From the IMG/VR virus record IMGVR_UViG_2693429622_000012: a stretch of DNA of 4,592 nt. The stretch is one strand, 5' to 3'. Origin of the DNA: a virus (Duplodnaviria > Heunggongvirae > Uroviricota > Caudoviricetes). The notes under the pieces are model-generated. The model saw only the letters and a list, made by a program, of their open reading frames with translations. It was not told where the DNA came from and made no database searches. Both the position numbers and the translations under genes were made by a program. Of this stretch, positions 2,413-4,592 are shown one piece after another. Every line of letters starts with the position of its first letter. The stretch's first letter is position 1.

Positions 2413-2641
2413 CTGTGCCGGATACATCACAGTTTCTGGAACCTTAGGTACTACAGTATCAGTCAGGGTGCTATATTTTCAGATGTGATGAAAGCCTGTC
2501 AGCAGGCAGGGCGTATCGGAAATGACCCAGTAGAGAAAACGTTGACTCAGATACCGGTGCTGAGTTACCGGGAAACCGGCATCACATGACCGCTATCCTG
2601 AGGTGTACTGGCAATAGCGGACACTACCATTTGTTCTTTTT

Positions 2642-3460
2642 TTAAGCAGCCATCTGATGATATTTTTCCCTGAAGGCTGCCGGGGAGATATTCCCCAGAC
2701 GAGAGTGACGACGCTGACGATTGTAGAAAATCTCAATGTATTCCCGTATTACTGAGATGGCTTCATCCCGGTTATTAAAACGATAGTGGCTCAGGCTCTC
2801 ATTTTTCAGCGTTCCCCAGAAGCTTTCCATCGGAGCGTTGTCGTAACAGTTACCTTTACGCGACATTGATGTTTTCAGACCAGACTGCTCCTGTATGACC
2901 CGGTAATCGTATGCGCAGTACTGTGAACCTCGATCAGAGTGGTGGATTAGCCCGGCAGGTGGGCGCTGGCTCCTGAGCGCCATAAACAGGGCTTTACCTG
3001 TCAGCTCTTTTGTCATGCGCTCTCCCATGGCGTAGCCGACAATTTCGCACGTATAAACATCTTTGATGCCAGCGAGGTACAACCATCCCTCCTGTGTGGC
3101 AACATACGTCAGGTCCGCCACCCAGACCTGATTTGGTGCTGTAGGAGCGAACGTCTGGTTCAGCAGATTTGGCGCAACTGGCAGATTGTGGTTCGAGTTC
3201 GTAGTCGCTCTGAACTTGCGTTTCTGCTTACAGCGTAGCCTTAGCTCCTTACGAAGACGTGCCAGTCGGTCACGACCAACGATGATGCCATTCTCTGCCA
3301 GCTCCGTCTGGAGCCGCCGGGTTCCATATGTTTCGCGAGTGCGGATATGTGCCACCTTAATCTCCAGTTTTAGCCGCTCATCACTTTGTTTTCTGTCTGA
3401 GGGTTCATGCTGTACCCAGTTGTAATAACCGCTCCTGGATACACCAAATACCTGACACAT
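2642..3460 (-). CDS. IS3-family transposase OrfB (DDE catalytic domain); expressed as an OrfAB fusion by -1 frameshifting
   Basis: 272-codon ORF with a DDE-integrase-like core (WVADLTYV..., HHSDRGSQY..., ...NAPMESFW...YNRQRRHSRLGNISP). The frame stays open upstream of the first Met to the slippery site, where the -1 frame of OrfA reads ...KKSNSVFCTGVAEKYALIEQWRQQFPIEAMCQVFGV.... Confidence 0.9.
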   Translation of the reverse strand: MCQVFGVSRSGYYNWVQHEPSDRKQSDERLKLEIKVAHIRTRETYGTRRLQTELAENGIIVGRDRLARLRKELRLRCKQKRKFRATTNSNHNLPVAPNLLNQTFAPTAPNQVWVADLTYVATQEGWLYLAGIKDVYTCEIVGYAMGERMTKELTGKALFMALRSQRPPAGLIHHSDRGSQYCAYDYRVIQEQSGLKTSMSRKGNCYDNAPMESFWGTLKNESLSHYRFNNRDEAISVIREYIEIFYNRQRRHSRLGNISPAAFREKYHQMAA

Positions 3461-3495
3461 CGCTTCAATGGGAAATTGTTGTCGCCATTGTTCGA

Positions 3496-3736
3496 TTAAC
3501 GCGTATTTTTCAGCGACTCCTGTGCAAAATACGCTGTTGCTTTTTTTAATATATCTCGCTCAAGGCGAGCTTCATTTAACGCCTTACGCAGTTGCAGAAT
3601 TTCAGATTCCAGTTCAGCCACCGTGCGGGAACCAGGAGTACCGAGCCCTTTTCTGGCGGCGGTAACCCATTGTCCTAAAGTGCCTTCAGGAAGAGATAAT
3701 CGGGAAGCGCCTTCACTGATCGAAAGTTGATTTTCA
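3496..3736 (-). CDS. IS3-family transposase OrfA (helix-turn-helix/leucine-zipper part), N-terminally truncated by the N gap
   Basis: Translation ...ENQLSISEGASRLSLPEGTLGQWVTAARKG...LERDILKKATAYFAQESLKNTR, stop at 3496-3498. The residues the ORF track places upstream of the Ns are encoded by repeat B, not by IS sequence, so they are not part of OrfA. Confidence 0.8.
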
Positions 3737-3743
3737 NNNNNNN
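3737..3743. other. Run of 7 N: gap of unknown true length
   Basis: Explicit Ns. At least the first ~20 OrfA codons and the left IS terminus (roughly 130 bp or more) are missing, and the sequence resumes in non-IS repeat B. Confidence 0.9.
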
Positions 3744-3806
3744 CACCCGGCACCATGCAATGGCACATAGCGCCACTCTCCAGCCCCTCTCCGGAGGGGC
3801 TGTTTA
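3744..3806 (+). repeat. Conserved non-coding block B, copy 2, with a perfect 8-bp hairpin
   Basis: cacccggcaccatgcaatggcacatagcgccactctccag then agcccctc-tccg-gaggggct at 3782-3801. Matches 2353-2408 with one indel in the stem; the downstream sequence diverges but keeps a ttttNcagatgtga motif. Confidence 0.6.
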
Positions 3807-3833
3807 TATTGATTTTGTCAGATGTGAGTAAAC

Positions 3834-3867
3834 TCCTTATGGACTTTGTTGTTTTAGTCCATAAGGA
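3834..3867. repeat. Perfect 12-bp inverted repeat with a 10-nt spacer (hairpin or protein-binding palindrome)
   Basis: tccttatggact (3834-3845), ttgttgtttt, agtccataagga (3856-3867). Overlaps the 3' end of the minus-strand 111-codon ORF. Confidence 0.6.
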
Positions 3868-4172
3868 CATATTTGCAGAGTGCAACGGTTATTAAAGCAT
3901 TCATTCAATACGTTATCTGTATTTGTAGGGCATTCCTGGCTATTTTTGATTGAATTCCAGAATGTTTTATTGAATGGTACTACGTTGTAAATGGTTACAG
4001 GTAGCACTTTGTTATTGAGCATGATGCCTGTGTGAGTCAGTGTAAATATACTTTCAGGAGGTAAGAAAGCATCCGATTGATACCAGATTATTAATTTTAT
4101 TTTACTCCATATGACTGAAAAAGATATTCCGCATGATGGCTGGATAACTGTATCAATCACAATCCACTTCAT
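3837..4172 (-). CDS. Hypothetical protein in an AT-rich island, cargo candidate; may be a chance ORF
   Basis: 111 codons open in visibly AT-rich DNA, where stop codons are frequent by chance. ATG at 4172 is preceded by caaGGAAActaa, a plausible Shine-Dalgarno. No recognisable family; the last ~10 codons are encoded by the 12-bp inverted repeat, which lowers confidence. Confidence 0.3.
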
Positions 4173-4432
4173 TTAGTTTCCTTGTTTATGCCTTGCTGGT
4201 GATGTTCTGAAAAGTATAAATGATATTTTTGAATGTAAACCATAGAGCAGAATTATTTTTCTGATGTTGTTTATTGTTTATTTAAATGCAGGGTGGTTTA
4301 TATCTCGTCTTGTAGTTTATCCATGCATATCTGCTTGATAATCAGGTTTTTATTTAAGGTATGGTTTTGTGTTTTTTCTGTATTACATGTCAGGTATTTT
4401 AAAGAATTATTTTTCAGATGGTGGAAAGAACC

Positions 4433-4559
4433 ATGGCATTTAAACACTATGATGTTGTCAGGGCGGCGCCGCCGTCAGATCTTGCGGAAAAGCTGACACA
4501 TAAACTGAAAGAGGGCTGGCAGCCGTTTGGTAGTCCGGTGGCCATAACCCCTTATACCC
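4433..4559 (+). pseudogene. 5' fragment of a conserved lambdoid-prophage late-region gene (possibly DUF1737-like), interrupted by an IS insertion
   Basis: ATG at 4433 preceded by ggtggaaagaacc. Translation MAFKHYDVVRAAPPSDLAEKLTHKLKEGWQPFGSPVAITPYT runs straight into the IS3-family terminal repeat at 4560. The family assignment is recollection only. Confidence 0.5.
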
Positions 4560-4592
4560 TGAGGTGTACTGGCAATAGCGGACACTACCATT
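4560..4592 (-). mobile_element. Terminus of a second IS3-family copy, same orientation as the element at 2599; continues beyond the window
   Basis: 33 bp identical to 2599-2631 (tgaggtgtactggcaatagcggacactaccatt); the two preceding bases (cc) are also shared, so the exact IS boundary is uncertain by 1-2 bp. Confidence 0.8.

Follow-up and report, generated by a model that had tools for sequence, protein, structure and literature searches.

The window, by which we mean the whole 4,592-nt stretch of DNA analysed here, is with a probability of about 0.9 a short-read draft scaffold of Shigella sonnei type, in which three contigs from two lambdoid prophage remnants have been interleaved. An initial annotation had described two same-orientation IS3-family copies bracketing an AT-rich island. 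The repeated terminus, the element and the existence of two copies are all supported by the present analysis, but the bracketing would appear to be an artefact of scaffolding, since the first copy lies in a different prophage about 664 kb away and is adjacent to the island only in the scaffold order.

Runs of N at 995-1006 and 3737-3743 join three contigs, and the window is for this reason regarded as a scaffold. The third piece begins at 3744, a start corrected from the positions of the N runs. The window opens inside a shared tRNA repeat and closes 33 nt into IS600. Pieces 1 and 3 are assigned below to prophage B and piece 2 to prophage A; the two IS copies are named accordingly, and L-numbers denote loci used for comparison.

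1-994, plus strand: piece 1, prophage B, Q-downstream region; 100% identity to L016 7478-6485
1-51, plus strand: tRNA-Ile(CAT), partial (tRNA and Rfam searches)
155-231, plus strand: tRNA-Arg(TCT) (tRNA and Rfam searches)
369-695, plus strand: ORF of 108 aa
731-862, plus strand: DUF3927 ORF (Pfam)
about 874 to 994, plus strand: 5' part of an STnc100-type module
995-1006, no strand: gap of 12 N; its neighbours on either side are non-adjacent in finished genomes
1007-2598, plus strand: unique part of piece 2, prophage A, with methylase, tRNAs and STnc100
1007-1864, plus strand: 3' 858 nt of a DNA methyltransferase gene (Pfam N6_N4_Mtase)
1905-2154, plus strand: tRNA-Ile(CAT), tRNA-Arg(TCG) and tRNA-Arg(TCT), at 1905-1980, 1988-2064 and 2078-2154 (tRNA search)
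2231-2420, plus strand: complete STnc100 sRNA module (Rfam RF02076, full model length)
2599-3736, minus strand: IS600 attached to the copy A flank, IS positions 1264 down to 127; right inverted repeat from 2599
2642-3460, minus strand: orfB (Pfam rve, 8.7e-26; rve_3, rve_2, HTH_21)
3496-3736, minus strand: orfA, 5'-truncated by the gap (HTH_Tnp_1)
3541-3547, minus strand: A7 slippery run, IS positions 316-322, in the register A_AAA_AAA of orfA
3737-3743, no strand: gap of 7 N; conceals the left 126 bp of IS600 and links IS600 to an unrelated locus
3744-3812, plus strand: 3' part of the STnc100-type module with terminator hairpin; resumes piece 1 after 55 missing bases
3837-4172, minus strand: iraM-like gene of 111 aa; coding part of the AT-rich island
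4433-4559, plus strand: first 42 codons of a DUF1737 ORF (MAFKHYD; Pfam DUF1737, 57 bits), cut by IS600
4560-4592, minus strand: right inverted-repeat end of IS600 copy B; the scaffold stops 33 nt into the copy

Scaffold order and finished chromosomes

The chromosomes used for comparison (finished, 4.8-5.0 Mb, rich in IS1, IS2, IS4, IS630 and IS600) were found by exact-protein look-ups. Ten were examined for the junction between the DUF1737 ORF and IS600 (junction B, 4559/4560), and the junction at 2598/2599 (junction A) was examined in one of them. This is the 4.82-Mb chromosome GCA_965230885.1, to which both L013 and L016 belong; its coordinates for junction A (about 1,829,529) and junction B (about 2,493,845) put the two some 664 kb from each other, and both have the same orientation.

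Piece 2 is contiguous at the first of these positions. Window 1007-3736 aligns to L013 15636-18365 with 1 mismatch in 2730 nt, and junction 2598/2599 is present exactly in L013 and L014. In L013 the IS600 is complete to its left end, beyond which come TCC and prophage-A sequence rather than the sequence from 3744 onward. The unique part of this piece, 1007-2598, resembles another type of prophage, one with Q, a methylase, three tRNAs and nanS-p (L003). Pieces 1 and 3 belong together elsewhere. L016 6429-5581 matches window 3744-4592 at 100% identity and runs on into a full 1264-bp IS600, and the two pieces are contiguous in L016 save for a 55-bp spacer that is the sequence of window 2298-2352. 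E. coli 042 has the same arrangement: 1-994 and 3744-4559 form one locus with 55 bp between them, again identical to window 2298-2352, and piece 1 is 99.6% identical to L002 2951-3944 of this strain. At 100% identity, and without piece 2, pieces 1 and 3 are contiguous in 10 finished chromosomes.

The positions of the breaks are informative. Prophages A and B have in common an exact repeat of 130 bp in the STnc100 module (window 2232-2361), and both breaks in prophage B, at 994 and 3744, fall inside it, piece 1 stopping 66 nt in. Breaks within an exact repeat of this kind are the signature of an assembly break. Together with window ends in the tRNA repeat and in IS600, they make up the picture that short-read assembly of paralogous prophages produces.

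We propose that prophage B (Q, tRNA-Ile, tRNA-Arg, DUF3927, STnc100, iraM, nanS-p remnant) supplies pieces 1 and 3 and that prophage A (Q, methylase, three tRNAs, STnc100, nanS-p) supplies piece 2, each prophage having its own 1264-bp IS600, predicted to make OrfAB through a -1 frameshift on A7. We infer that the assembler broke prophage B inside the 130-bp repeat and at the IS600 ends; the scaffolder would then have set the prophage-A contig, with its resolved repeat and IS body, between the two halves of B. On the true chromosome 994 would continue through GTAGGTATATGGGATAATCGCGGATTCAGGTGCTGGTACTGAATTCACCGGGAGG to 3744, and 3736 would continue to the IS600 left end and then into TCCTTCCAGG. 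The left end, ..AAACTCAGGCTACCTCA, would be followed by TCCTTCCAGGCCCATCC at copy A and by CTAATCAGCTTAGCC at copy B.

The alternative that survives best takes the scaffold order as real, with a prophage-A segment inserted in the STnc100 module of prophage B and direct IS600 copies truly flanking iraM. The window as given does show that order, IS elements heavily rearrange Shigella genomes (PMC7373316), and more IS600 and IS1 insertions are present at the same locus in L023, L018 and L022. This alternative is nevertheless very improbable. Both breaks are within the A/B repeat, and the joints would have to link the interior of the repeat to the interior of the methylase gene, and IS position 127 to the interior of the repeat; at such joints there is neither homology nor an IS end. 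The contiguity of pieces 1 and 3 in the finished chromosomes, with piece 2 contiguous elsewhere, also stands against it. That a 2.7-kb block of prophage A with its IS600 moved into the prophage-B STnc100 by two illegitimate joins, giving a true IS600-flanked iraM cassette, is if anything a shade less credible. No two IS copies were found flanking the island at short range on one molecule. The suggestion that 3744-4559 is a segment prone to deletion or inversion does not follow, as the copies do not flank it.

IS600 and its two copies

Thousands of RefSeq features match the body at 2599-3736 with 99.9% identity; they are annotated as 'IS3-like element IS600 family transposase' with programmed frameshift, and the name IS600 is taken from that annotation of near-identical features. 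An IS3-family element with OrfA/OrfB and an A7 slippery run had been recognised from the sequence, and this identification holds throughout: the DDE/rve and HTH domains, the ORFs overlapping at A7, the inverted repeats and near-identity to IS600 are all found. OrfB scores 334 bits against a cut-off of 160 for the NCBIfam transpos_IS3 equivalog. A -1 slip at A7 leads, by frameshift reconstruction from the sequence, to a predicted OrfAB of 385 aa, just as long as the frameshifted genes called in L015, L021 and L023.

A complete IS600 at L001 275-1538 measures 1264 bp; its imperfect inverted repeats are of the TG...CA type, and a 3-bp duplication, GTT, flanks it. Full copies (L001, L016) end in TGAGGTAGCCTGAG..CGGACAC on the left and TGAGGTGTACTGGC..CGGACAC on the right. 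The window carries only the right end, twice; the scaffold gap takes away the left 126 bp of the first copy and, with them, about 20 codons from the start of orfA. The element was suspected of reaching past 2599, as many E. coli matches begin 12-16 nt upstream. This extension was dismissed, the flank in L004 being merely similar by chance (GACCGAATATC vs GACCGCTATCC), and the end of IS600 at TG is set by L001 and L013.

The terminus seen at both 2599 and 4560 is indeed identical and in the same orientation: 2599-2631 and 4560-4592 share 33 identical bases, far above chance in 4.6 kb, and the repeat reaches 38 nt at 97% when flanks are counted (two shared flanking C's). A copy has one right end, yet here one and the same right end adjoins two different unique sequences, ending at 2598 and 4559, and one finished chromosome contains both junctions. 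This excludes a single physical copy. The idea that one IS600 was reported twice by the assembler, which would accord with the presence of only one IS body in the window and with the routine reuse of collapsed repeat contigs by scaffolders, is thus left with almost no weight, and the claim of two distinct copies stands. Compared with the finished genome's copy A, the body in the window has 1 different base, at position 3312, and it is the same as copy B and other copies, as a collapsed repeat contig would be.

Copy A is a simple insertion into non-coding DNA that follows the first STnc100 module and lies upstream of nanS-p. The module it follows, at 2231-2420, reaches 123.6 bits in Rfam, where the gathering score is 47, and past the copy in L013 there is a second STnc100-like module and then an intact nanS-p. 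The search for 3-bp target-site duplications that the initial annotation had recommended gave a divided answer, read outside the window. At copy A, TCC stands before the right end (window 2596-2598) and after the left end in L013, as GTT does on both sides in L001; copy B has no duplication, CCC facing CTA.

IS3-family elements (IS911, IS2, IS3) make OrfAB by -1 frameshifting and transpose by a copy-out/paste-in route through a circular intermediate, a mechanism by which copy A may also have arrived. Their transposition yields 3-bp duplications, and homologous recombination between copies later erases these and rearranges the flanks. IS600 was reportedly first described, from Shigella sonnei, by Matsutani and colleagues in 1987. 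Five IS, IS600 among them, have expanded in every Shigella species, and recent IS activity in S. sonnei is high (Hawkey et al. 2020, PMC7373316). A degenerate pattern for either junction gave 0 matches in species-representative genomes, a set in which Shigella is probably present only via the E. coli representative.

The interrupted DUF1737 ORF and the IraM island

The second IS end adjoins codon 42 of the DUF1737 ORF, which agrees with the insertion point first proposed; the exact breakpoint can be placed only to within 3 nt, since TGA comes next both in the uninterrupted target and at the IS end. The ORF is interrupted in the finished genomes as well. Its description as a conserved late-region prophage gene does not fit its closest uninterrupted relative among those examined, E. 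coli 042 (99.6% identity over 819 nt). The proposed comparison with an uninterrupted homologue returns there not an intact gene but an ORF of 62 codons followed by a stop, annotated as an incomplete pseudogene, whose full length is 94% identical to residues 1-62 of a 617-aa DUF1737+SASA esterase, NanS-p. IS600 therefore cut a remnant and not an intact late gene. NanS-p consists of DUF1737 followed by a SASA esterase domain, and the window holds DUF1737 residues 1-42 alone; judged by these domains, the MAFKHYD ORF is a putative 5' remnant of nanS-p, not a functional member. A DUF1737 gene call of 57 aa adjoins IS600 in S. sonnei loci and equals the predicted 57-aa DUF1737-IS fusion.

On the far side of copy B, its left end is followed by CTAATCAGC... 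and not by the remaining DUF1737 ORF (CCC TGATGCAGG...). This flank carries, in the opposite orientation, a 203-aa, 3'-truncated homologue of a 234-aa gene from a phage-like element that some E. coli genomes have between tonB and yciI; the 203-aa ORF has no NCBIfam match. A foreign flank together with the missing duplication indicates that copy B is the breakpoint of an IS600-associated deletion or recombination. Copy B thus cuts the nanS-p remnant after codon 42, and its other end lies at the truncated gene of the unrelated phage-like element. The sequence once downstream of the site (TGATGCAGGCGATTGC..., holin and lysis genes) may have been moved by deletion or inversion between IS600 copies.

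Copy B had been taken as a sign of recent IS activity. Junction B is identical in all ten finished S. sonnei-type chromosomes examined, including that of S. sonnei 53G (L018, HE616528.1), so the insertion is not recent in this strain. A recent simple insertion inactivating a functional late gene would suit a DUF1737 frame that is open up to the IS, and also the result that neither IS-flank junction is spanned in 5,426 complete E. coli genomes (a collection without Shigella). It is highly unlikely all the same, given a junction shared by ten chromosomes, a foreign far flank without a 3-bp duplication, and a target that in the closest uninterrupted relative examined is already a short remnant of an esterase gene.

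The AT-rich island is real, with a GC content of 0.28-0.36 at 3801-4400 against about 0.5 elsewhere. Its 111-aa ORF scores 162 bits against a cut-off of 121 for NCBIfam NF007393, 'anti-adapter protein IraM', and is accordingly named here as a predicted IraM anti-adapter homologue. A Pfam hmmscan gave no family for this protein; a precomputed PmrD (PF11183) match is on record. The RefSeq annotation of over 1,400 E. coli genomes, E. coli 042 among them, names this protein IraM. Public contigs with exactly this IraM are mostly shorter than 5 kb, the size one would expect where repeats lie on both sides of a locus. For the 108-aa ORF at 369-695, neither Pfam nor NCBIfam gave a match.

Relation to known elements and phages

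All of this is known biology and is already present in published finished genomes. The IS in the window is the same as IS600 (99.9-100% nucleotide identity over 1138 nt, 1264 bp in finished loci), and nothing of substance differs beyond its extent here, the first copy being without its left 126 bp and the second consisting of 33 nt. Copy B is without the usual target duplication, a consequence of its position at a rearrangement breakpoint. The window order resembles a composite transposon in that direct IS600 ends surround an 816-bp iraM segment; the resemblance ends there, as the copies lie about 664 kb apart in different prophages.

Both prophages have the layout of the Q-downstream region of Stx-type lambdoid phages, which comprises Q, the tRNAs ileZ/argN/argO, the PR'-proximal sRNA STnc100, a moron, nanS-p and the lysis genes. 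Prophage A retains the methylase, three tRNAs and a full nanS-p. In prophage B, iraM is placed between the STnc100 module and the nanS-p remnant, a slot which we take to be the one that stx occupies in Stx phages. In contrast to those phages there is no stx, and the nanS-p of prophage B is a 5' remnant that was then cut by IS600.

The case carries a caution for the reading of drafts joined by N from genomes rich in IS and prophages, such as those of Shigella, as these may interleave contigs of paralogous prophages and so yield apparent IS-flanked cassettes that are absent from the genome. For S. sonnei it is another instance of IS600 expansion and prophage decay. Two points are mildly useful: the IS600 of prophage B is a rearrangement breakpoint common to S. 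sonnei genomes, and iraM is carried in S. sonnei as a prophage moron.

The prophage-B locus has received other IS600 and IS1 insertions in L023, L018 and L022. In L023 an extra IS600 lies at the equivalent of window 543-546, and in 53G an IS1 is nested inside copy B.

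IS600 copies and their insertion sites

Piece 2 of the scaffold differs from IS600 copy A of the finished genome (the copy on the flank of prophage A, window 2599-3736) at a single position, 3312. The base at this position is the one found in copy B, the IS600 in prophage B, and in other IS600 copies; the scaffold's IS body thus looks like a collapsed consensus. The right-end flank of IS600 in the window resembles that at an E. coli locus:

window 2583-2598, right-end flank of copy A
L004 (E. coli IS600 locus) 1501-1512, right-end flank

Many unrelated E. coli IS600 copies have a right-end flank similar to window 2587-2598 (GACCGnnTATC), a likeness that may be fortuitous or reflect a weak target preference.

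Additional, lineage-specific insertions are present at the locus:

L023 7000-8156, additional IS600 in one chromosome, at the site equivalent to window 543-546
L018 (S. sonnei 53G) and L022 (one other genome) 4714-5411, IS1 inside copy-B IS600

The open reading frame adjoining the left end of copy B is AT-rich, carries no annotation and is truncated (203 aa vs 234 aa). Its position and that of a relative are:

L016 (prophage B, finished chromosome) 3751-4362, gene at the left end of copy B
L025 (tonB-yciI phage-like element) 5896-6600, relative

The family occurs in a serine-recombinase phage-like element within the tonB-yciI interval of some E. coli genomes, and in S. sonnei a related element lies near tonB/ompW, beside prophage A (L012/L013).

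STnc100-type modules and the IraM homologue

STnc100-type sRNA modules recur in the two prophages:

window 874-994
window 2177-2420
window 3744-3812
L013 (prophage A, finished chromosome) 18560-18800

In each module a transcript of ~190 nt follows a promoter-like TTGAC element and terminates in a GC hairpin with a T run. Within the modules a 130-bp stretch is identical between prophages A and B; a second, diverged module lies past the copy-A insertion site. STnc100 has been connected with PasD sRNAs (2026 preprint).

The IraM homologue (window 3837-4172, minus strand) is a moron neighboured by an STnc100 module and the nanS-p remnant, with Q and tRNAs upstream. Our Pfam scan of this protein matched no family, whereas an identical protein has a precomputed PmrD (PF11183) match on record.

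tRNA region of prophage B

Two features belong to this region:

window 52-154, interval matching the position of the prophage-A tRNA-Arg(TCG)
window 369-695, plus strand, 108-aa ORF downstream of the tRNAs

The prophage-A tRNA-Arg(TCG) occupies window 1988-2064; neither ARAGORN nor Rfam called a counterpart in window 52-154. Compared with the prophage-A gene, this interval keeps the flanks (repeat families D3 and D1) and differs in ~40 central nt, and it looks like a decayed argN-type tRNA. Pfam and NCBIfam searches of the 108-aa ORF gave no match; the ORF has a gene call in another of the loci compared (L019) and is kept in E. coli 042, the closest uninterrupted relative examined.
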